The notes: generated by a model from the sequence alone, not told the origin. A DNA stretch of 29,875 bases from Candidatus Aenigmatarchaeota archaeon (GCA_044343545.1 JAWBZR010000006.1:1-29875), one strand, 5' to 3'. Shown: positions 6,128-25,270, counted from the first letter of the stretch. Program-made: numbers and translations.

Positions 6128-6471
6128 TGAAAGAAAAACATTTCATCATATTGTGTTTTGCTATCTCACTCTTAGGTTTGATGGTCATCTACATTGCAGA
6201 CGAAATGACTCAACCTGAGTGGGTTTCCATATCACAAATAAATGAAGGTAAAAATTACGTTGCATTCAACGCGACGATTATTGGCATAAAAAGAACTGAT
6301 GTAGGCACATTCATAAAGGTTAAGGATAACACTGGAGTCATAGACGTGGTTGTTTTCGACGAAAAAATTAACACAACTGGCTTGAATGCGGGAATGTCTG
6401 TCAAAATAATTGGAAAAGTTCAAAGATATAAAGGAAAGTTGGAAATAATACCTTCAAGCATCTTGAGATAA
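6127..6471 (+). CDS. Membrane-anchored OB-fold protein
   Basis: N-terminal TM helix, then FIKVKDNTGVIDVVVF...GMSVKIIGKVQRYKGKLEI OB pattern. Confidence 0.75.
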   Translation: MKEKHFIILCFAISLLGLMVIYIADEMTQPEWVSISQINEGKNYVAFNATIIGIKRTDVGTFIKVKDNTGVIDVVVFDEKINTTGLNAGMSVKIIGKVQRYKGKLEIIPSSILR

Positions 6472-7617
6472 ATCCTCTGCTGTAAGTATTTTTGTTTTGC
6501 TTGTTTCAAATTTTTTTTCTGCTGAAGATGCTATTAAATATTCCACTCCCAACTTATCTGCTACTTCTGCCATTTCTTTATCAATCGTTCCGTCTATTAA
6601 CACTATTTTTGCATTCTTCAAAGTCTCGTTATTTTCTGAAAACTGTGTTAAAGGTAATTTTGCTGTCATCTTTAGCTTTTCATTAAAAACATACGCCGCT
6701 CTCGTTCCAACCATCTTATCGAGTATGTCTAATATTTTTTTCTTCTTTTCCGAATCCAAATCATCTCTTGACTCTTGAACGATCAATTTTTTTTGCCTCT
6801 TTTTTCTTATCGCTTCTACAAAAGGTAATTTTTGCCTCAAGCAAATGAATATCTCCTTATCAGCTAGCTCTTCCACTTCTTTCCCATCAGGTGCTCTTGC
6901 TACGTAATCTATCTTAACAAACCTTGAAAGTTTTTTGAGAACTAAATTGCCTCCTCTGTCCCCATCTAAAAACACCGTTACTTTCTTGTTTTTCACCAAC
7001 TCAGGTAGATATTTTGATATAGCAGTTCCGCCTATGGAAGCAACGTTCTTTATGCCTGCTTTTAACAGATTGATTACATCCGCCCTGCCTTCGACTAGAA
7101 TTATTTCTTCCGCGTTCATAGCATCGGGACCGCAATCTATGTCTTTGTATTTAACTATTTCTGATGACCTTACAGAATCTCTTATAGCTTCTGCCAATTC
7201 ATCCGCATCTGGCTGTTCTTTCATGAGTTTTTGAAGTATTTCCTTTGCCCTGTCGATAATATACTCTCTCTTGATCTCCCTCATATCTTTTACATCTTGA
7301 AGTGTTACCTTTGCCTCACAAGGTCCTATCCTTTCTATAGTTTCTATTGCCGCTGCTATTAATGCCGTTTCCGTGCTATCCAAGCTCGACGGAATATAAA
7401 TTTTCCCTTCTGTTTTTCCGTCAATTTCCTTTAGCTCGACGTCTATCCTCCCTATTCTCCCGGTTTTTTGTAATTCCCTCAAATCCAAATCACTACCAAG
7501 CAAACCTTCAGTTTGCCCAAAAATAGCACCTATGACGTCAGGTTTTTCCACCAAACCTTCGGCAACGAAGCTTGCCTCTATCAAATATTTTGTGGTTGTT
7601 TGAGCTATTTTCCCCAT
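6454..7617 (-). CDS. dnaG: Archaeal DnaG (TOPRIM, exosome-associated)
   Basis: VEKPDVIGAIFGQTEGLLG..LDLRELQKTGRIGRI, VEGRADV, FLDGDRGG, APDGKEVEEL; ATG 7617 follows a GGGGTGA SD. Confidence 0.95.
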   Translation of the reverse strand: MGKIAQTTTKYLIEASFVAEGLVEKPDVIGAIFGQTEGLLGSDLDLRELQKTGRIGRIDVELKEIDGKTEGKIYIPSSLDSTETALIAAAIETIERIGPCEAKVTLQDVKDMREIKREYIIDRAKEILQKLMKEQPDADELAEAIRDSVRSSEIVKYKDIDCGPDAMNAEEIILVEGRADVINLLKAGIKNVASIGGTAISKYLPELVKNKKVTVFLDGDRGGNLVLKKLSRFVKIDYVARAPDGKEVEELADKEIFICLRQKLPFVEAIRKKRQKKLIVQESRDDLDSEKKKKILDILDKMVGTRAAYVFNEKLKMTAKLPLTQFSENNETLKNAKIVLIDGTIDKEMAEVADKLGVEYLIASSAEKKFETSKTKILTAEDLSQDA

Positions 7618-7960
7618 AGTAAATATCACCCCTTTTGTTCAACTCTTCTATTTTCACCACCCTAAAAATCTTTTTAAATTCCCTTCTTAATGCATGGTTG
7701 TACTTTATTCTTTCCACCTCAAAAAATCTATATATCTTTTTCTTTATCAGTTCTCCTTCACGATCAAAGTCTGTTAAAACCACGTATTCTTTATCATACT
7801 TCAACTTTGGAATAAATTTTTCCAAGGATGATCCTGAAATGGCTTGTATATCATGTAGCTCCAAAGCTTGCAGAGCTTCTTTATCTTTCTTACCTTCGAC
7901 TATTATTGAAAAATTCTGTAATTTTGATAGTAATTTTCGGTAATCGTGATGTTCTAACAT
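7538..7960 (-). CDS. Small stand-alone TOPRIM domain protein
   Basis: IIVEGKKDKEAL and VLTDFDREGE motifs. Confidence 0.85.
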   Translation of the reverse strand: MLEHHDYRKLLSKLQNFSIIVEGKKDKEALQALELHDIQAISGSSLEKFIPKLKYDKEYVVLTDFDREGELIKKKIYRFFEVERIKYNHALRREFKKIFRVVKIEELNKRGDIYYGENSSNNHKIFDRGKLRCRRFGGKT

Positions 7961-8782: not shown

Positions 8783-9391
8783 ATGGAAATCTTACTGAAA
8801 TTGGCTGAGAAGATAGAAAATAAAGAGTTAAGAAAAAAAGTAATCGAATACGTGAACGATAAAAAGCTTAAAAACCCTCACTTTTCAAAATACAAAAGAG
8901 AAGATTTGGAAAAAGCTGGAAGCTATTTTTCTGTTGGAAATTCACATTTTGGTCCTATCGAAAGAGACGTCGTGCACCATACAGCCGTGTTAACGCACAT
9001 GGTTATACAAATAGCCAAGATTGTCGAATCTGGTTATGGAATAAAAATCGATATGGATAGTTTAATAGCAGCTTCCATATGTCATGACATAATGAAATCC
9101 GTGGAATATAACAGAGATGAAAACAACGAATTAGAGCCAACGGGTGTAAGCTTGGATCATACGATGTTGGGTGTCGCTGAGCTTTATGCAAGAGAATTTC
9201 CTGAAGACGTGATACATATAGTTGCATCCCATGCTGGCGAAGCTGGAACTACGAAACCCAAATCTTTCGAAGCTTTAATATTTCATGAATTAGACTCGCT
9301 AGCTTCCGTGATAGAATATTATGCTATCGTTTATTCTAAATTGAAAGAAAAAATGAAAGCTTTCGAAAAGGAGAAAGAAGATAATGAATGA
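8783..9391 (+). CDS. HD-domain phosphohydrolase
   Basis: VHHT, ICHDIMK, LDHT, VASHAG, FHELD metal-binding residues. Confidence 0.85.
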   Translation: MEILLKLAEKIENKELRKKVIEYVNDKKLKNPHFSKYKREDLEKAGSYFSVGNSHFGPIERDVVHHTAVLTHMVIQIAKIVESGYGIKIDMDSLIAASICHDIMKSVEYNRDENNELEPTGVSLDHTMLGVAELYAREFPEDVIHIVASHAGEAGTTKPKSFEALIFHELDSLASVIEYYAIVYSKLKEKMKAFEKEKEDNE

Positions 9392-10511
9392 TTTTAAAAA
9401 TTTGGATGATGTGATTTCATTTTTAAAAAAGAGTTTAGAAAATGTGAAAAGTGGCGATAATGTCTGTATTATTCATCATGACGATGCTGACGGATGCACA
9501 TCAGCAGCTATGCTATCCATACTTTTATTCAAAAACATGAGCCAATTTCCTGAAACAATACCTATGAAGGCTCCTGCCAATGTTTCCAAAAATTTCATAA
9601 ACAAATTAAAAAGCATGAACCCGGACCATATATTTACATTAGACGTAAGCATAGATCCAAAAAAATTAGCACTATTTAATGGCTTTATCTTGGATCATCA
9701 CATACAAAATTTTCAAGACAAAGGAAATATTAATTATATTAATCCTAGATGCTTCGAGAAAATTGATGAAAAAGTTCCACCCACGTCTTTTATAATTTAC
9801 AAAGTTTTCAAGTTATTTTATCCGAACGAAAAGATTTCTTGGATAGCTGGTATAGGAATAACGGAAGATCACAGAGTTGAATTATGTAAAGAAGTTTTTT
9901 ATCAAGTAATGAAAGATTATCCAAATTTTTTCAGCGCGAATGAAATAACACAAGAAAGCATTGAAAGGTCTATTTTTGGAAAGTTGTGGGATGTCGTGAG
10001 ATCTGGTAGAATGATAAAGAAAAATGAAGGTGCGAGAATTGCCGTTCAAGCGTTGATAGAATGTAAAGATGATCCGATTAGCTTTTCAAAAGGCTTGACT
10101 CCAAATTCTTACACTTTAATAAAATTTTATGAAATTGTAAACAAAACTGTTAAGAGGATATTGGACGATGCTCCGAAAAAAGCAAGATTTTATTATGACA
10201 AGAAGATTTTGATTTACGAGCTGCCGTCCAGTAAGATAGAATCTTTGACTTCTTTCGTGTCTGATAAATTGAGAATAATGTATCCCGAGTGGGTTGTTTG
10301 CGTTATAAGTAATGGCTCTGATGACAAAAATTTGAAACTGAGTATAAGGGTTGAACATACCAGAAGGGACGTAAATCTTGCAGAAATAGTAGACAAACTA
10401 AAAAAAGACTTTCATGAATTAAAAGGAGGGGGGCATAAATCCGCTGTTGGAGTAAATATAAAAAAAGAATATCTTGAAAGTTTTTTAAAGAAATTTATCG
10501 ACTCTTTTTAG
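9384..10511 (+). CDS. DHH/DHHA1 phosphoesterase (RecJ/GAN-like)
   Basis: HHDDADG, TLD, LDHH, SIR, GGGHKSAVG. Confidence 0.88.
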   Translation: MNDFKNLDDVISFLKKSLENVKSGDNVCIIHHDDADGCTSAAMLSILLFKNMSQFPETIPMKAPANVSKNFINKLKSMNPDHIFTLDVSIDPKKLALFNGFILDHHIQNFQDKGNINYINPRCFEKIDEKVPPTSFIIYKVFKLFYPNEKISWIAGIGITEDHRVELCKEVFYQVMKDYPNFFSANEITQESIERSIFGKLWDVVRSGRMIKKNEGARIAVQALIECKDDPISFSKGLTPNSYTLIKFYEIVNKTVKRILDDAPKKARFYYDKKILIYELPSSKIESLTSFVSDKLRIMYPEWVVCVISNGSDDKNLKLSIRVEHTRRDVNLAEIVDKLKKDFHELKGGGHKSAVGVNIKKEYLESFLKKFIDSF

Positions 10512-17258: not shown

Positions 17259-17301
17259 TAATTTTATATTGCTGTTTTAATAATTTAAAGATTAGATTTT
17301 G

Positions 17302-17604
17302 ATGAGAAAAGGATATAGGTATGAGTATTTAGCAAAAAGAAAATTGATAGAAAAATATGGAAAACAAAACGTGATAAAATTAGCTATAGGTCAATCTGCC
17401 GACTTTATTATTTTAGCACCAAAACAAAATAAAATAGAAAAAATAGTTGAAGTTAAGGGGACTTGCAAAGAAAAGTTTTACTTGAAACCAAGAGAAAAAA
17501 CTCAATTTCGAAATATACATGAGCTTGCGAGGGAGCATGATATACCGGTTGAGGTTTGGATAAAAACGCGTGGCAAGGAGTTTGATGTAAGGGTGATGGA
17601 ATGA
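17302..17604 (+). CDS. Hjc-like PD-(D/E)XK nuclease (Holliday junction resolvase-like)
   Basis: RKGYRYE, ADFIIL, IVEVK; about 100 aa. Confidence 0.65.
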   Translation: MRKGYRYEYLAKRKLIEKYGKQNVIKLAIGQSADFIILAPKQNKIEKIVEVKGTCKEKFYLKPREKTQFRNIHELAREHDIPVEVWIKTRGKEFDVRVME

Positions 17605-18281
17605 AAATTTTAGTTGTTGGTGATAATCATAATGATTTGGAAAACATGATTAGTTTCTTAGAAAAATTGAAAGAATTTGATTTCGATGTGATAGCATACG
17701 TTGGTGATTTTAGCGATGTTGGGGTTACGAAAGGTTTTCAGCAGGAGGATGTTGCAAAAATTTTGATAGAAGAGTTGAAAATGCTTAAAAAACCGATTGT
17801 TGCCGTGCCGGGAAATAATGACAATAAAAATGTTATCGAGTTGCTGGAAAAGGAAGGTATAAGTGTGCATGGCAAAGGAAAAATTATTAATGGTGTTGGT
17901 TTTTACGGTTTTGGTGGGGCGAAAACACCTTTCAACACTTTTTATGAGCCTTCTGAAGAAGAAATAAAAAAGGGTTTGGAAAAAAGTTATGTTCAAGTAA
18001 TGAATGTTGAAAAGAAAGTTCAAATAACACACGTACCGCCTATAAATACAAAATTAGATCTAACTCTTACGGGACTTCATGTTGGTTCTGTTGTTGTAAG
18101 AAACTTTATAGAAAAATATTCTCCTACTGTTGCTCTTTGTGGTCACATACATGAAAGTAGGGGTGTTGATTATATAAACAAAACACTATTGTTAAATCCT
18201 GGTAGGTTTGCTGAGGGATATTATGGTATAGTCACTATTAATGAAAAGACAGATGGTTTTGTTTTTAACGTTATAGAATAA
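17601..18281 (+). CDS. Calcineurin-like metallophosphoesterase
   Basis: GDNH, VGD, PGNND, THVPP, GHIHE, NPG. Confidence 0.9.
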   Translation: MKILVVGDNHNDLENMISFLEKLKEFDFDVIAYVGDFSDVGVTKGFQQEDVAKILIEELKMLKKPIVAVPGNNDNKNVIELLEKEGISVHGKGKIINGVGFYGFGGAKTPFNTFYEPSEEEIKKGLEKSYVQVMNVEKKVQITHVPPINTKLDLTLTGLHVGSVVVRNFIEKYSPTVALCGHIHESRGVDYINKTLLLNPGRFAEGYYGIVTINEKTDGFVFNVIE

Positions 18282-18470
18282 CACACCCCTTTGTTGCAAG
18301 TGGAAATATTGAGTTTTATTATAAAAATTAATTCAGATGCAATATATTTATACATATAAATATAACACTGTTATATTTTATATTGTGACATTATGATATT
18401 TTCCACAAGAAACAATGGGGTGGGTTATATATACGTTCCAATAGAAAAAGGTTTATTTCTCAAGGAAACA
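18282..18470. other. Replication origin oriC: inverted ORBs flanking an AT-rich unwinding element
   Basis: Minus-strand ORB TTTCCACTTGCAACAAAGGGGTG (about 18284-18306), plus-strand ORB TTCCACAAGAAACAATGGGGTGGG (18401-18424), mini-ORB-like GTTCCAATAGAAA (18435) and TTTCTCAAGGAAAC (18456); directly upstream of cdc6. Confidence 0.88.
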
Positions 18471-18486
18471 TTTAATATAGATTGTT

Positions 18487-19701
18487 ATGGATACCCAAAA
18501 GACTATAAGAAACATATTCCAGGAATTTATATCAAAACCACCCCAGATTTTTAAGAACAGAGATGCCCTCTCATCAGAGTTTATACCAGAAACGATATTT
18601 CATAGAAACAAGGAAATTAACACGATAGCATCGATTTTAGCGCCTTCTTTGAAAGGAGCCAGGCCTTCAAACATTTTTATTTACGGTTTGACAGGTACGG
18701 GAAAAACTTTAGTGTCTAAGTATATCACCGAAGAATTGGAAAAAATATCCTCTCAAGGAAACTATCCGGTTAAAACATTATACATTAATTGCAAGATGAA
18801 AAAAATTTCTGACACGGAGTACAGGCTTGTAACAGAGCTTACTAGAATGTTGGGCTACAATCTTCCGACAACGGGCATGCCAACGGATTACATTTATCAA
18901 ACTTTTTTCAATGCGTTGGATTCGGAAAGAAGAATTATAATTTTGGTTTTAGACGAAATAGACGCGTTAGTTGAAAAAGTGGGAGACGAATTTCTTTATA
19001 ACTTGACGAGAATAAATCAAGAATTGAAACAAGCAAAGGTTTCTATAATAGGCATAACCAACGATCTTCATTTTATTGAAATTTTAGATCCGAGAGTAAA
19101 AAGCTCTTTGAGAGAAGAAGAAGTTTTATTCATTCCTTATAACGCAACACAATTGTATGACATATTGAAGCAAAGAGCGGACATAGCCTTTTCAGAAGGC
19201 GTTTTGTCAGAGGAAGTTATACCAAAGTGTGCTGCCTTGGCAGCGCAAGAGCATGGAGACGCAAGAAGAGCGTTAGAATTGTTAAGGGTTGCAGGCGAAA
19301 TAGCGGAAAGGTTGGGTGACAGCAAGGTTACGGAAAAACACGTGGATATGGCGCAAGAAAAAATAGATTATGACAGAATAGTAGAATCAACGAAAGTTTT
19401 GCCAAAACAAACTAAAGTCGTCCTTTGGGCGATATTGGAGTTGGCCGAAAAGAAAAGAGATGACATACAAACGGGAGATGTTTACGACATTTATCAGAAA
19501 AAATGCAAGGAAATCGGCTTGTATCCTTTGACTCAAAGAAGAATTTCCGATCTCATTTCAGAGCTTGATATGGCCGGAATAATAAACGCAAAAGTCACTT
19601 CCCTTGGTAGATATGGTAGAACAAGAGTAATATCTTTCAATCTTTCAGAGCCAATAAAACAAAAAATTAAATCCATATTGACTGAAAGCCTAGTGGTTTG
19701 A
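18487..19701 (+). CDS. cdc6: Orc1/Cdc6 replication initiator
   Basis: YGLTGTGKT, LVLDEID, LDPRVKSSL, HGDARRALELLRVAGE, C-terminal wHTH with GRYGRTR. Confidence 0.97.
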   Translation: MDTQKTIRNIFQEFISKPPQIFKNRDALSSEFIPETIFHRNKEINTIASILAPSLKGARPSNIFIYGLTGTGKTLVSKYITEELEKISSQGNYPVKTLYINCKMKKISDTEYRLVTELTRMLGYNLPTTGMPTDYIYQTFFNALDSERRIIILVLDEIDALVEKVGDEFLYNLTRINQELKQAKVSIIGITNDLHFIEILDPRVKSSLREEEVLFIPYNATQLYDILKQRADIAFSEGVLSEEVIPKCAALAAQEHGDARRALELLRVAGEIAERLGDSKVTEKHVDMAQEKIDYDRIVESTKVLPKQTKVVLWAILELAEKKRDDIQTGDVYDIYQKKCKEIGLYPLTQRRISDLISELDMAGIINAKVTSLGRYGRTRVISFNLSEPIKQKIKSILTESLVV

Positions 19702-20645
19702 TGGAAGAGCAAGAAATAATTAAAAAATTCTTGGATTTAGGCGTGCAACTCACGAACGAAGCATTTAGTATGGTAAAAAAAGATCCGGATTTTTTTCTCG
19801 CAGAAATCAAGAAACTCAAACCACGGCCTTTTTTTATAACAAAAGACATTTTGAATAAAATAATAGAAAAAAAAGAAAGGACGGATTTTAGAATTATAAA
19901 AACTATTCAGCTAGGAAAGAAAGCGTTAAGAGTGGAAGATTACGCAAACTTTTATTTGAAAAAATATGAGAAGATAAAGGAAATTTTTGTGCAAGCAGGA
20001 TATAGCGGAATGTCTATCAATAAAATCGGGGAAACCACGAAGGAATTTTGGACCATAGGTGTTGTAAAGGAGAAAAAGAAATCTTCTTTGGTTCTCGAAG
20101 ATCCTACGGGGGAAATAGACATATTTTTCGATGGTATAATGAGACAAAAAATTGATGAATTTTGTAGGGACGATGTTGTTGCGGTGTTTTGCGAAAAAAT
20201 TAAAGACAGGTTTGTTGTCAAAAAGATATCACATCCAGACATACCGTTGAGCAGAGAAGTGAAAAAGACAAAAGACGAGTTGTTCGTAAAGATTGAGCAA
20301 GGCGATGAATGTGTTTTATCACCGAATAAATATATCAGCCCAGCTTTTTTACAACTCGACGACATCGTTTTTTTGTTACTTCCGAGAAAATTCTTCGAAG
20401 CGTTAAAATTTAATATAACCTCTGAGGATATTGCAGGTTTGTTGAAGAAAAGATTTTTGCTACCATCAACTATTGACATCGCAATTGGCGAGATTGAAAG
20501 TTTGGTTTTGACGGAATTGCCCGACATAATAGTGACGGACTTGGAACCATCCCTTTGCAAAAACTATAAAGGGACTACAATTATTTCTGTTTTCGACAAG
20601 AGCTATGAAGTAAATCTTCACACGAGAGAGGTAAAAGAATTATAG
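19701..20645 (+). CDS. Inactivated, internally deleted DNA polymerase D small subunit (DP1) / B-subunit-like protein
   Basis: VEDYANFYLKKYEKI, OB fold LEDPTG...DDVVAV, HPDIP, LLKKRFLLP, LVLTELPDII, NYKG; no SDxH, GNHD or GHxH catalytic motifs. Confidence 0.78.
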   Translation: MEEQEIIKKFLDLGVQLTNEAFSMVKKDPDFFLAEIKKLKPRPFFITKDILNKIIEKKERTDFRIIKTIQLGKKALRVEDYANFYLKKYEKIKEIFVQAGYSGMSINKIGETTKEFWTIGVVKEKKKSSLVLEDPTGEIDIFFDGIMRQKIDEFCRDDVVAVFCEKIKDRFVVKKISHPDIPLSREVKKTKDELFVKIEQGDECVLSPNKYISPAFLQLDDIVFLLLPRKFFEALKFNITSEDIAGLLKKRFLLPSTIDIAIGEIESLVLTELPDIIVTDLEPSLCKNYKGTTIISVFDKSYEVNLHTREVKEL

Positions 20646-20697
20646 GATAAAGTATGAAGTAACTTTAAAATTCGGTTAAATTATTAAAAATAAACAT

Positions 20698-23409
20698 ATG
20701 CCCATAGAAATGCAAGTGCTGGATGTTGATTATGTAATGTTGAATGATCACCCGACGATAAGAATTTTCGGAAAAACAAGTGATAAAAAATCGATAACGG
20801 CTTTCGTCGAAGATTTTTATCCCTACTTTTATGTGCACGTTGAAGATGGAAAAGACGAGCAATTAATAAAGTATCTCGAGGAAAAACACAAGCAAATGCT
20901 AGTAAAGTTGGAAAAAGTTGAAAAGTTTTTACCGATAGGATATTCTAAGGAGCCAACGAAGCTTTGGAAAATAACAATAAAGAATCCTTCCAACGTGCCT
21001 TTGTTGAGGGATGAATTAAAGGCGAAGAATTTTGTTAAAGACGTTTTCGAAGCAGATATACTGTTTAGAAACAGATTCATGGCAGATAAGGATATTGTGG
21101 GTATGGGTTGGTATGAGGTTGACGGTATCGGTGTCAAGACAAGTATTGTGAAGACTGAAAAGGCGTTAACGCTTAAGAAAATAAAACCTATAGAAAAATA
21201 TGAGAATGCGCATTTGAAATATTTGAGCATCGATATAGAAACCTATTCTGAAGAATTCGGAATGCCAGATTCTTCAAAAGATCCTATAATAATAATAAGT
21301 TTGTTTTTTTACCCTTCTTTTAAAGGTAATAATACTTGCGTTTTGGTGGCGAAAAAAACCAAGAACGGTTTTGGAGACGTGAAGATGTTTAGCACTGAAA
21401 AGGACATGTTAGAGGAGTTCTTGAAAATTGTCGAAGATTTCGATCCGGATATAATATTGGGTTATAACAACACAAATTTCGATCTTCCTTACATAGAAGC
21501 TAGATTAGCGGCAAATAAATTACCGAAAACGTTGGGGAGGTGCAATCAAAAAGGAATTAATTGCACAAAATTGTCTTCAGGGTGCAAAATTACCATTCCT
21601 GGAAGAATAGTGGTGGATGTTTATTCCCTGATAAAGGAGGCGGTGACAAAGTTTGGCATGTATAAAGGTTTGAAAAGATTTAGTTTGGGAGATGTTTCAC
21701 AACTCATTTTGGGTGAAGGAAAGGTGGATGTGGCGCATAGCGAGATAAGTAAATTTTGGAATGATGATGGAGAAAATTTCACGAAGCTTATTAATTACAG
21801 CAGAAAAGACGCAGAGTTGCCTTTTAGAATGCTAATGGAAATGAACATGCTTGATAAATTTTTTGAAATAAGCAAAGTGAGCGGTTTAGTTTTGCAAGAT
21901 GTTTTGGATGGTGGCGAGGCCATGAGAATAGAGCAGCTCTTGTTGAGGGAGTTCAACAGGAGAGGTTTTATAGTACCTAACAAACCTGACAATCAAGAGC
22001 TGAATAAAAGAAACGAAGAAAGGATAAGTTCTGGTCTAAAAGGAGGTTTTGTGCTTTCGCCAGAAGTTGGCTTACATGATAAGGCGGTAGTTTATTTAGA
22101 TTTCAAATCGATGTATCCAAGCATAATGATAGCATTCAATATTTGTCCCACAACTCTTTTAAAGGAAGAAAAAGATGTTGAAAAAATCGTTTCGCCTTTT
22201 GGCACAGCTTTTGTGCATCCGAAAATAAGAAAAGGCGTGGTGCCTGAAATAGTTGAATATTTGATAAAAGCAAGAGACAGAGTAAAAAAAGAAATGAAAA
22301 ACGCAAAAACAGAGCAAGAAAAGAAATATCTCTATGCAAAACAGTATGCCTTTAAAACGGTTGCTAATGCTTTTTACGGTTACACTGGTTATTTGAGAGC
22401 AAGATTGTATGTGTTAGAGATAGCAAATACTATAACTGCCACTGGGAGGGAATTAATAAAGAGGGCAAAACACATAGTCGAGACAAATACACCATACAAG
22501 GTTGTTTATGCTGATACAGACTCTGTGATGGTCAAACTTGATACGGATGATGTTTCGGAGGCTTTCAAAATCGGCAATGAAATAGCAAAAATGATAAACG
22601 AAAGTATTGGTTACGGATTGGAAATGAAGGTTGAAAGCGTGTTTAAAACCATGCTCATATTGAGCAAAAAGAGATATGCAGGTTGGAGTTTTGAAGAAAA
22701 CAACGGTGGTTATACCGACAGCATAGTTACTAAAGGCATAGAAACCGTGAGAAGAGATTGGTGCAATCTCGTTTCCGAGACGCTTCAAGAAACGCTTGAA
22801 ATAATTCTAAAGGAGAAGGATGTTAGGAAGGCTTTGAATATAGTAAAGGAAAAAATAAGCGATATAAAGAAAGGTAAAATGGATATAAACAAGCTTGTGA
22901 TAACAAAAAGCATATCAAAGTCTTTGAAGACATATAAAGGCATACAGCCGCACGTAGAGCTTTTGAAAAAAATGAAGAGGAGAGATCCATCTTCAGCTCC
23001 TGGAGTTGGTGATAGAATAGGCTATGTCATAGTTAAAGGTACTGGTCAAGTTTCCAAAAGAGCGGAAGACCCGGATTATGTGATAAAACACAACATACCT
23101 ATAGATTCTGATTACTATATAGAGAATCAACTTTTACCTCCTTTGGAAAGAGTGTTCGAAGCTTTGTCAATAGGCAAGGCAGAAATTCTTGGTGTAGGCA
23201 AGCAATCAGGTTTGGTAGACATACTAGTCAACGGTAAGCCAGAAAGCGAATATCAAGAATATCTTGAAGAGATAGACGGTTTTGTTTGTGTTTCTTGCGG
23301 TAATGTTTTGCAAAGAGTTCCGATGAGTGGAAGGTGCGATGCATGTCGAGGAGAGCTCGTTTTTTACAAGGGAGACAAGAGATCAAGAATATTCATACCA
23401 GCTTCATAA
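20698..23409 (+). CDS. polB: Family B DNA polymerase, Pol-delta-like, with intact 3'-5' exonuclease and C-terminal DP2-type Zn finger
   Basis: ExoI DIE, ExoII YNNTNFD, ExoIII YSRKD; DFKSMYPS, KTVANAFYG, YADTDS, KKRY, GIETVRRDWC; C-terminal CVSC-x12-CDAC. Confidence 0.96.
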   Translation: MPIEMQVLDVDYVMLNDHPTIRIFGKTSDKKSITAFVEDFYPYFYVHVEDGKDEQLIKYLEEKHKQMLVKLEKVEKFLPIGYSKEPTKLWKITIKNPSNVPLLRDELKAKNFVKDVFEADILFRNRFMADKDIVGMGWYEVDGIGVKTSIVKTEKALTLKKIKPIEKYENAHLKYLSIDIETYSEEFGMPDSSKDPIIIISLFFYPSFKGNNTCVLVAKKTKNGFGDVKMFSTEKDMLEEFLKIVEDFDPDIILGYNNTNFDLPYIEARLAANKLPKTLGRCNQKGINCTKLSSGCKITIPGRIVVDVYSLIKEAVTKFGMYKGLKRFSLGDVSQLILGEGKVDVAHSEISKFWNDDGENFTKLINYSRKDAELPFRMLMEMNMLDKFFEISKVSGLVLQDVLDGGEAMRIEQLLLREFNRRGFIVPNKPDNQELNKRNEERISSGLKGGFVLSPEVGLHDKAVVYLDFKSMYPSIMIAFNICPTTLLKEEKDVEKIVSPFGTAFVHPKIRKGVVPEIVEYLIKARDRVKKEMKNAKTEQEKKYLYAKQYAFKTVANAFYGYTGYLRARLYVLEIANTITATGRELIKRAKHIVETNTPYKVVYADTDSVMVKLDTDDVSEAFKIGNEIAKMINESIGYGLEMKVESVFKTMLILSKKRYAGWSFEENNGGYTDSIVTKGIETVRRDWCNLVSETLQETLEIILKEKDVRKALNIVKEKISDIKKGKMDINKLVITKSISKSLKTYKGIQPHVELLKKMKRRDPSSAPGVGDRIGYVIVKGTGQVSKRAEDPDYVIKHNIPIDSDYYIENQLLPPLERVFEALSIGKAEILGVGKQSGLVDILVNGKPESEYQEYLEEIDGFVCVSCGNVLQRVPMSGRCDACRGELVFYKGDKRSRIFIPAS

Positions 23410-23435
23410 AAGCTTCACGAGACATTCACGCGCTC
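23392..23435 (-). repeat. 11-bp phased (G/A)TGAA box array x4
   Basis: TTCA(T/C) at 23392, 23403, 23414 and 23425, across the convergent polB / LAGLIDADG gene ends. Confidence 0.5.
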
Positions 23436-23999
23436 AAATTCAACGGGGTTCAGTATTTTTTTCACCAACGTTCTTTTTTTCTCATTCTCGAATCCTATCT
23501 TTTCTGCATATATTTGCAAGTTATGCTTTCCGTTAATTTCGAGCACATAACCTTTGCCCATCTTGTAGCAAAGTGCTTTTATTCCTTCCATTTCTAATAA
23601 AACTTTCAAAGACATCAATCCTTCCTTATTTATCGAAGAAAGCCTCAAACACCTTTCCTTCCTTCCCTTTCTTTTTCTCGCTCTTATTAAGCCGGAGAAA
23701 TCAAACACAGCTTTCAGGAACTCCCTTCTGAACTCTTCTGATGAAAATGCACGTGAAGGAACTTTCCATTCACGTCTACCCAAGCTTGCTCCCAGATCTT
23801 CTATCTCTAAAATTATTAACAAACTTTCGTAATGTTTTTTGCCACATCTTTTTCGTGTGTAAATTTTTTTGATCAGGGAGCGGAGTTTTTCTTTCGCTAT
23901 CTTTTTCAACTCTTCATCGGAAATTTCCACCCATATCCTTCTCCCACTCTTGACCCCCTTCATGGCAAGAATGCCGTAAACATAGCCATTTATTTCCAT
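23415..23999 (-). CDS. Stand-alone LAGLIDADG-fold protein, probably catalytically inactive
   Basis: YVYGILAMKG and EFLKAVFDFSG resemble the two LAGLIDADG helices; LSSINKEGL..LKVLL..GI and YAEKIGF..EKK are typical of DOD/WhiA-like domains. Confidence 0.7.
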   Translation of the reverse strand: MEINGYVYGILAMKGVKSGRRIWVEISDEELKKIAKEKLRSLIKKIYTRKRCGKKHYESLLIILEIEDLGASLGRREWKVPSRAFSSEEFRREFLKAVFDFSGLIRARKRKGRKERCLRLSSINKEGLMSLKVLLEMEGIKALCYKMGKGYVLEINGKHNLQIYAEKIGFENEKKRTLVKKILNPVEFERVNVS

Positions 24000-24079
24000 G
24001 GATTTGATTATGATACTTTAAATATAAATTTGTTGCATAAAATGGGTAGGGAATCATTTCACGTGCAGCTTTGTGAATT

Positions 24080-25270
24080 TCATATCCATAACACGTCTAA
24101 TTTTGAATAAAAGAGCAAGGTTGGGAGTATAAAAAAACCCATATTATTTGTCCTCTTCACGTGCAGTAATATTGGTAAAACGCCTATGGAAGTTGATGTA
24201 ATTAATAACAATAAACCCCAAGACCCGCAGGATATTAATGCTAAAATAATTAGGGAAGCAATGATGATTTTAGAAAAATTCCCATAGTTTACCTTTTCCA
24301 GAAAATTTAAGAGCTTCTTTCCAAGCAGGAAGCATACCAGTGAAGAGATGCCGGCCGAAAATAAAACAGCACCAAAAAACAGCAACATGAAGTCTTGTAT
24401 GCTTGTTAGCGATAAAGCCTCTGCCAAGCCACTCCTTATCTTACCTGTGGAGGCAAGCATTATTACAGTCAAAAGCATATTGGCAGCATTTAGTGATGAT
24501 AAAACGCTTAAACTTTCTTCTTCGGTTGTTCTTACGAGCAGGGATACCATCAAACCTATTTGGCTTTCTCCTGCTCCAGGTAAAAAGGCAGAAAGCGTGC
24601 CACAAAGCAAGCTTAGCAAGATCAATTTCACGTCAAGCTTCACGTCATCTTCACTCGTATCTTGTTTGGGTATACTTTCTTTTTGGACGAATAAAAGGTT
24701 AGGTATGCCGAAAAGACCCGTTAAGATGCAAAAGATTGCAACGTCTTGCTTCAAGCCCTTCCCGTTTAACGTTACTAAACCCAGAACACCTGAAAGTAGG
24801 AACAAGAGCAGCGCAAAGACTTTTCTCTCACCTTTTTCCACGAGTATTGTGACAATTACCAGTGTGCCGAGGAAGTAGGGAATGAACGGTTTTGCGAATT
24901 TTTGTAATTTTTCTGTAATTAAAAATAGCAGGGGTGACGTGGCGAAAATTAGCAATGCTGCAAGTAAAAACGAAATCAAGTTGATTTTCAAAGCTTTTAA
25001 TCCTTTGCCTTTCAATACGAGTTTATGACCGGGCAACACGTTGAGGACGGTGTTAGTGTCAGGTAGAGATAAAAATAGCGTGGGTATGTAGTTGAATATG
25101 ATGTTTGCAGTGGCAAGAGATGCTAAAAACACTATAAGCGTTTTTGTTTCCACGAACAAGCCAAGAGAAATGATCAAAAAATATATTTGGTTGGGATGCA
25201 CGCCGGGCAATAACCCTGCAAAGAAACCAACGAGAATACCAAAAAAACAAAAAAACAAAAAACCTATCAT
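24080..25270 (-). CDS. TctA-family (tripartite tricarboxylate transporter-like) membrane protein
   Basis: GLLPGVHPN, IPTLFL..P, VLPGH, LPG repeat in the second half; multi-TM. Confidence 0.85.
   Translation of the reverse strand: MIGFLFFCFFGILVGFFAGLLPGVHPNQIYFLIISLGLFVETKTLIVFLASLATANIIFNYIPTLFLSLPDTNTVLNVLPGHKLVLKGKGLKALKINLISFLLAALLIFATSPLLFLITEKLQKFAKPFIPYFLGTLVIVTILVEKGERKVFALLLFLLSGVLGLVTLNGKGLKQDVAIFCILTGLFGIPNLLFVQKESIPKQDTSEDDVKLDVKLILLSLLCGTLSAFLPGAGESQIGLMVSLLVRTTEEESLSVLSSLNAANMLLTVIMLASTGKIRSGLAEALSLTSIQDFMLLFFGAVLFSAGISSLVCFLLGKKLLNFLEKVNYGNFSKIIIASLIILALISCGSWGLLLLITSTSIGVLPILLHVKRTNNMGFFILPTLLFYSKLDVLWI

Follow-up and report, generated by a model that had tools for sequence, protein, structure and literature searches.

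A candidate origin-proximal replicase locus in an Aenigmatarchaeota-type archaeon, pairing a zinc-finger PolB with a reduced DP1

What kind of replicase is encoded beside a candidate replication origin when a gene resembling DP1, the small subunit of the archaeal D-family DNA polymerase (PolD), is followed by a gene for a family-B DNA polymerase (PolB) rather than for DP2, the large subunit of PolD? This question is raised by a 29,875-nucleotide (nt) stretch of archaeal DNA (JAWBZR010000006.1; hereafter the window), which forms one contig (C19) of a 651,488-bp, 22-contig genome with a completeness of 90.45% and a G+C content of about 34% (the window itself is 66.1% A+T). Four features lie on its + strand within positions 18278-23409: a candidate origin, an orc1/cdc6 initiator gene, the DP1-like gene and the PolB gene. 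Taken together, they very probably constitute the replicase locus, next to the origin, of a DPANN archaeon of Aenigmatarchaeota type in which PolD has been lost and a zinc finger of PolB docks on a remnant of DP1. The polymerase system as such is already known, since it is that of the published Aenigmatarchaeota B6-aenigma1 PolB and its inactive DP1 (PMC7544198; PMC12680538).

The DP1-like protein and the tail of PolB

The product of 19701-20645 is a DP1 homologue with an inactivated phosphoesterase site and no nuclease site. Its family can be recognised only by way of NCBIfam, a fold search and alignment. The NCBIfam model NF003118 (PolD small subunit) matches at E 6.8e-20, far under its cut-off, with residues 2-195 aligned to profile positions 3-226 of 481, and a Pfam scan of the protein returned no phosphoesterase match and only a weak OB match (E 0.0017). 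An AlphaFold2 model built from 87 homologues is of very high confidence (predicted local distance difference test, pLDDT, 95.3; predicted template modelling score, pTM, 0.84). When this model was used as a Foldseek query, the top matches were all P. abyssi DP1 (6hmf_B, E 7.5e-14), followed by the B subunits of the eukaryotic polymerases Pol epsilon, delta, alpha and zeta. VIA-align gave the same order, with Z 19.1 against P. abyssi DP1 (6hmf_A; root mean square deviation 4.0 over 258 aligned residues) and Z 13-16.4 against the eukaryotic B subunits.

Alignment with a canonical 493-amino-acid (aa) DP1 bearing the Pfam phosphoesterase domains reveals how much has been lost. None of the eight metal-ligand positions is kept (0/8), a deletion has removed motifs II and III, and nothing is left of the N-terminal half of the phosphoesterase domain. 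What persists at the C-terminal end is a conserved NYKGTT...TRE segment, and across 15 homologues invariant residues are found in the OB fold and in this NYKGTT segment, as well as at E134-D135. Homologues in the order form an erosion series: forms of 384-396 aa keep motifs I, IV and V, many of about 360 aa keep none, and the 314-316-aa group to which the window's protein belongs, also devoid of these motifs, is among the shortest. A subgroup with lengths of 384-396 aa (P0079, P0081, P0082, P0085, P0087, P0093 and P0095) retains DxH, the His of motif IV and GHxH but not GNH(D/E).

The PolB gene begins 52 nt after the stop codon of the DP1-like gene. Residues D179-I-E181, N257..F261-D262 and Y367..D371, which we take to be the exonuclease motifs, are all present, as are D468FKSMYPS, KTVANAFYGY and D606-T-D608, which we likewise assign to the polymerase motifs; on this reading of the sequence both the proofreading and the polymerase sites are intact. 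Beyond the thumb, a conserved GKQxGL stretch is followed by a variable linker, which leads to a CxxC-x12-CxxC finger. The conserved stretch includes QSGLVDIL, a candidate PCNA-interacting peptide (PIP) motif. The tail holds only four Cys residues (864, 867, 880 and 883), and these are invariant in 31/31 orthologous tails. Approximately 20 residues follow the finger, and the helical bundle of DP2 and of eukaryotic C-terminal domains (CTDs) has no counterpart there.

The origin of this finger is indicated by profile comparison. Against all sequences in the PDB, the tail profile matched DP2 of T. kodakarensis (6knb_B, residues 1127-1161, E 1.2e-7) and DP2 of P. abyssi (6hms_B, residues 1119-1152, E 3e-6), and nothing but DP2 chains was found below E 0.01, the next match being at E 0.014. 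The DP2 segment in question is Zn-III. In PolD, an electronegative groove where the OB and phosphoesterase domains of DP1 meet accommodates the KxRRxP loop of Zn-III, and the affinity of DP1 for a 20-residue Zn-III peptide is nanomolar (PMC6355029). The loop of the window's finger corresponds to this KxRRxP loop. Judged by these profile matches, the PolB finger is homologous to, and specifically like, Zn-III of DP2.

The candidate origin, synteny and the missing DP2

The orc1/cdc6 product matches NF001625 (ORC1-type) at E 1e-157 with 525 bits, over the 501-bit cut-off. The TGA stop codon of its gene and the ATG start codon of the DP1-like gene share one base (TGATG), as can be seen in the sequence at the junction, GTGGTTTGATGGAA. 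Such an overlap suggests that cdc6 and the DP1 remnant are translationally coupled. Because PolB follows only 52 nt later and is probably co-transcribed, the initiator and the replicase would be made together beside an origin flanked by origin recognition boxes (ORBs). Three metatranscriptome runs of the same study placed 0 reads on 17300-24100, a result that bears on transcription neither way.

The region 18278-18428 is the probable replication origin of this archaeon. Inverted ORB-like repeats around an A+T-rich stretch beside orc1/cdc6 are present, as in archaeal origins of the cdc6-adjacent type, and short palindromes also occur inside the spacer. The two arms have the common reading TTCCAC..G.AACAA.GGGGTG. 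No third copy of the 29-mer arm was found across the 651-kb assembly at up to seven mismatches, and with a 21-nt degenerate pattern the two arms are the only sites in the assembly with 0 mismatches. In a comparison judged by eye, the arms share with Pyrococcus ORB oligonucleotides (PMC1904270) the TTCCA start, a GAAA(C) stretch and a 3' run of G, but their internal spacing is unlike that of the Pyrococcus elements.

Coordinates of the candidate origin, the three genes and two segments of the PolB tail
Feature	Position	Strand	Basis or remark
ORB-like element, left arm of inverted repeat	18278..18306	-	29-nt arm, 83% complementary to 18400-18428
A+T-rich spacer between arms, candidate unwinding element	18307..18399		93 nt, 84.9% A+T; putative function
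ORB-like element, right arm	18400..18428	+	29-nt arm of inverted repeat
orc1/cdc6 initiator gene, 404 aa	18487..19701	+	NCBIfam NF001625; Pfam Cdc6_lid, Cdc6_C
Shrunken, catalytically dead DP1 (B-subunit-like), 314 aa	19701..20645	+	N-terminal domain, OB fold and C-terminal half of phosphoesterase fold
Family-B DNA polymerase, 903 aa, with C-terminal tail	20698..23409	+	PF00136 E 7e-119; PF03104 E 1.8e-39
PIP-like motif QSGLVDIL, PolB residues 836-843	23203..23226	+	possible PCNA-binding; G834 and Q836 nearly invariant in 31 tails
C4 zinc finger (C864, C867, C880, C883) with Q-R-V-P loop	23287..23346	+	homologous to Zn-III of PolD DP2

Order-wide searches covered 61 genomes, the window's own included, from seven sampled families, and 30 loci were fetched, chosen to span six of the seven. 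A PolB match (E <= 1e-20) was found in 60/61 genomes, and 56 of these have a single near-full-length match with 46-100% identity. In every one of the 30 loci an open frame for the DP1-like protein lies directly 5' of PolB on the same strand, with a gap of 3-81 nt. The orthologue of the window's cdc6 (64-92% identity) is rarer, being present in 21/61 genomes, namely those of family f1 and one genome of f7. In all 21 it abuts the DP1-like gene (one gene is split by a contig end). In a further 30 genomes of the order, cdc6 is represented solely by a paralog with 29-39% identity, located elsewhere. Origin-cdc6-DP1 linkage is accordingly confined to the two families that keep the cdc6 orthologue.

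ORB-like sites precede cdc6 in 10/10 fetched loci of f1, the window's family. The same pattern, which was derived from f1, found no site in the 20 loci of other families, a result that does not show those loci to be without an origin. Five f1 relatives (loci L019, L020, L021, L023 and L043) carry further ORB-like sites just past the PolB stop codon, so that the cdc6-DP1-PolB block is bracketed, an arrangement reminiscent of Thermococcales, where dp1 contains a second cluster of ORBs (PMC1904270). In the window itself, no ORB-like site was found past PolB at up to three mismatches. Elsewhere, the same genome encodes another Orc1/Cdc6 paralog (contig C4, 6544-7329, - strand), which has 37% identity to that of the window. 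For most other families of the order, searches returned paralogs of this kind and no others, and the one on C4 may have a second origin beside it.

DP2 was not found. Neither PF03833 nor full-length TIGR00354 has a match in the window's own genome, and PF03833 has none in any of the 61 genomes (0/61), although the incompleteness of the genomes limits this claim to "not found." Similarly, the DP1 phosphoesterase family PF04042 has no match in the window's own genome, where the only DP1-like match is the gene described here. The same genome encodes a second family-B polymerase of 780 aa (contig C1, 78679-80874, - strand; locus L002, 1432-3774), which is 32% identical to the window's PolB, lacks a zinc-finger tail and has counterparts in most relatives.

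An earlier note, made from the sequence of the window, had anticipated much of this. It described an ORB-bearing origin, a cdc6 gene coupled by TGATG to a DP1-like gene devoid of all phosphoesterase metal ligands, and a PolB with intact proofreading and a C-terminal four-Cys finger, and all of these descriptions agree with the repeat structure, profile matches, alignments and motifs reported above. The outcomes that it named as refuting did not arise: the DP1/B-subunit profile and fold were recovered for 19701-20645, and the DP1-like and PolB genes are linked in relatives. Elsewhere in the genome, neither a DP1 phosphoesterase nor DP2 gave a match. Its central idea was that DP2 has been replaced by a PolB carrying a DP1-docking finger, giving a two-subunit replicase; this idea gains support, and the finger is specifically like Zn-III.

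Predicted docking and the place of the system among known polymerases

Docking of the two proteins was evaluated by complex prediction, another check that the earlier note had proposed. The DP1-like protein, PolB residues 809-903 and a zinc ion were modelled in three runs, together with three controls. The complex scored 0.75 (runs 0.72, 0.77 and 0.75), compared with 0.01 for the best control, and thereby passed a mark at or above which lie 116 of 157 solved complexes and 2 of 215 mismatched pairs. The runs share at least 92% of contacts, and the pLDDT of the partner is at least 66. Predicted contacts join DP1-like residues 74-90, 122-125, 134-136 (which include the invariant E134-D135), 157 and 260-261 with PolB residues 855-903, and the zinc finger lies inside the predicted interface. 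The model supports docking of the DP1-like protein on the PolB tail, and binding in this organism is accordingly predicted.

A replicase of the following kind can be envisaged. PolB, with both active sites intact, would end in a finger derived from Zn-III of DP2, and this finger together with the last 15 or so residues would dock at the junction of the OB and phosphoesterase domains of the DP1 remnant. The remnant would then act as a noncatalytic B subunit, a scaffold whose N-terminal and OB domains presumably tie the polymerase to other replisome or origin factors.

Several observations weigh against this interpretation. Solved DP1-DP2 and CTD-B-subunit complexes exist, and the passing score might mirror likeness to them rather than constitute proof; the use of custom alignments and of a riding zinc ion is likewise outside the conditions under which the complex scoring was calibrated. 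The loop of the window's finger reads Q-R-V-P, not the RR-x-P of DP2 and of most relatives' fingers. Because the genome is only 90% complete, a DP2 gene could sit on unassembled DNA, and with the second, 780-aa PolB present, bulk synthesis could fall to either polymerase. A single-protein search with the window's DP1-like sequence succeeded in 49/61 genomes and missed 12; a profile recovered the gene in 5/5 of the missed genomes that were inspected, which contributed five of the 30 loci, and the other seven fell outside that inspection. Finally, the lineage label rests on the names of 12 organism-labelled homologues, of which eight are Aenigmarchaeota or Aenigmatarchaeota and four are labelled otherwise (WOR-3, Planctomycetota, Omnitrophica and Asgardarchaeia).

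Comparable proteins have been described. Group B6 PolBs of Aenigmarchaeota were reported to have a single metal-binding motif (B6-aenigma1), which is most like Zn-III of DP2 (Kazlauskas et al. 2020, PMC7544198). The same paper reports that DP2 is missing from most Aenigmarchaeota and that there is a clade of inactive DP1, proposes PolB as the replacement for DP2 there, and in its Table S4 places a B6 hit and a DP1 hit on one Aenigmarchaeota contig, separated by 60 nt. More recently, AlphaFold3 and yeast two-hybrid experiments indicated that DP1 binds a PolB-DP2 CTD fusion in Aenigmatarchaeota and Baldrarchaeia, using members other than the window's, and the Aenigmatarchaeota CTD was called shorter, degenerate and structurally different (PMC12680538, 2025). 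The window resembles B6-aenigma1 in its PolB with a single C4 motif, its inactive DP1 and the absence of DP2, and belongs to the same phylum by the labels of its homologues. The DP1 hit of Table S4 is 336 aa long, as opposed to 314 aa for the window's protein, which is without the whole N-terminal half of the phosphoesterase domain.

Thus, the caution in the earlier note that archaeal PolBs with such zinc domains had been surveyed before was well placed, with the PolB, the inactive DP1 and the loss of DP2 all in print (PMC7544198). The main texts of PMC7544198 and PMC12680538 state no operon or Cdc6 neighbour for the Aenigmatarchaeota pair, and the FigShare neighbourhood file of the 2025 paper may show one; a literature search for an operon of this pair found no further paper. 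What the window adds is the synteny with origin and cdc6, the adjacency of DP1 and PolB across six of the seven families, and the extra-short DP1 of this genus.

A first parallel is archaeal PolD itself. The likeness to the P. abyssi enzyme (6HMS/6T8H) extends over the DP1 fold, the sequence of the Zn-III finger and the predicted docking at the OB/phosphoesterase junction. Gene order is also alike, with cdc6-DP1-DP2 beside oriC in P. abyssi, and oriC-cdc6-DP1 linkage recurs in Thermococcales, Halobacteriales and Methanosarcinales (PMC2643942). In contrast, the catalytic subunit of the window is a PolB and not the two-barrel DP2, of which only the Zn-III module survives; its DP1 has no nuclease ligands and hence no active Mre11-like site, and no helical bundle follows Zn-III.

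Baldrarchaeia PolB3 offers a second parallel, as a PolB-DP2 CTD fusion with a two-hybrid interaction in a lineage described as lacking DP2 and keeping DP1. Its CTD, however, is full-length and eukaryote-like, whereas that of Aenigmatarchaeota is shorter and degenerate, as in the window (PMC12680538).

The eukaryotic Pol alpha, delta, epsilon and zeta share the overall design, in that a PolB catalytic subunit is joined to a nuclease-dead, DP1-derived subunit through a C-terminal metal-binding module, and their B subunits are the next-best structural matches of the DP1-like model. Yet about half of the phosphoesterase domain is deleted in the window's DP1, which makes for a much smaller B subunit, and the eukaryotic CTDs carry CysA and CysB motifs and a helical bundle where the window has one motif and no bundle. 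We know of no further accessory subunits for a polymerase of the window's type, unlike the eukaryotic enzymes.

How might a PolB have come to occupy this position? One scenario, to be held only tentatively, starts from an ancestral oriC-cdc6-DP1-DP2 cluster in which recombination inserted a PolB gene into the DP2 frame, just 5' of the Zn-III codons; the 314-aa DP1 would then represent a minimal B subunit still able to hold the polymerase. Retention of the ancestral slot, the constant adjacency of DP1 and PolB, and the reduced DP1 would all fit such an in-place replacement that left Zn-III behind.

Three other explanations of the locus were weighed. The lineage could be neither a side branch nor a recipient but the direct source from which eukaryotic Pol alpha and delta, with their B subunits, derive. 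B6 has been placed with the Delta-like clade, and it has been suggested that B subunits may derive from an Aenigma-type DP1 (PMC7544198); moreover, human and yeast Pol delta score 372-379 bits against the window's PolB, near the 389 bits of Thermococcales PolB, a closeness that is only suggestive for placement. Against such descent, the two-motif B6-aenigma2 sequences have since been reassigned to Baldrarchaeia (Asgard) contigs misassembled into Aenigmarchaeota bins, and the tail of the Aenigmatarchaeota enzyme was described as short and degenerate, with a different structure (PMC12680538). The one-motif, bundle-free tail of the window and the DP1-like model, whose Z of 19.1 with P. abyssi DP1 exceeds that with every eukaryotic B subunit (Z <= 16.4), point in the same direction, and this direct ancestry is unlikely.

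Alternatively, the chief partner of the DP1 remnant might be Cdc6 at the origin; the remnant would then be an initiation cofactor that brings in the polymerase, and not a stable subunit of it. Cdc6 has been proposed to recruit PolD through DP1, with the recurring oriC-cdc6-DP1 linkage of Euryarchaeota in mind (PMC2643942), and the overlapping start and stop codons and the abutment with cdc6 in 21/21 genomes would be in keeping with such a role. But 30 genomes have only the distant paralog elsewhere, and the 17 loci fetched from paralog-only genomes, like the three from genomes without any cdc6 match, all keep the DP1-like-PolB pair; the constant neighbour of the DP1-like gene is therefore PolB. 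The interface between finger and DP1 is also modelled with confidence. This makes a role chiefly with Cdc6 quite improbable, although the two roles are not exclusive. Least plausible is that the DP1-like gene is a decaying, functionless relic and the finger serves, say, DNA or clamp contact: the phosphoesterase domain does shrink by degrees within the order (from 384-396 aa down to 314-316 aa), and Zn-III of PolD also lines the DNA duplex (PMC6355029), but the frame is open in 30/30 loci, the OB and NYKGTT residues and the four Cys are invariant, and the confidence in the fold is very high.

Neighbouring genes and wider meaning

The origin is preceded by a gene for a YfcE/MJ0936-type metallophosphoesterase (17601-18281, + strand; PF00149, E 5.5e-17), which ends 3 nt into the left ORB-like arm. 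Homologues with 48-73% identity lie 5' of the DP1-like-PolB pair in 24 of the 30 loci, including those of families without an adjacent cdc6. The idea that this gene might be the detached nuclease half of DP1 was considered and rejected, given that its product matches YfcE/MJ0936-type phosphodiesterases instead and that PF04042 finds nothing in the genome. A neighbouring CBS-domain gene shows the same conservation of position in at least 18 of the 30 loci, so that general synteny explains the presence of the metallophosphoesterase, which looks like plain conserved gene order.

On the other side of the locus, a free-standing open reading frame of 194 aa (23415-23999, - strand) starts 5 nt past the PolB stop codon and is convergent with PolB. 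It matches LAGLIDADG_3 (E 1.7e-07) and, weakly, the intein-bearing part of an aIF-2 model, and may be the remnant of a homing endonuclease beside a polymerase gene. The window also encodes a Cas4/Dna2-like PD-(D/E)XK nuclease (1142-1792), a Toprim-domain (DnaG-like) protein (6454-7629) and a DHH/DHHA1 protein of the RecJ family (9384-10511).

There are two broader implications of a locus such as this one. The eukaryotic design, in which a PolB is held by zinc to a nuclease-dead, DP1-derived subunit, can arise within the archaea, a point already published, along with partial tests of it. Furthermore, the DP1-PolB pair provides a small and tractable model for the function of B subunits.

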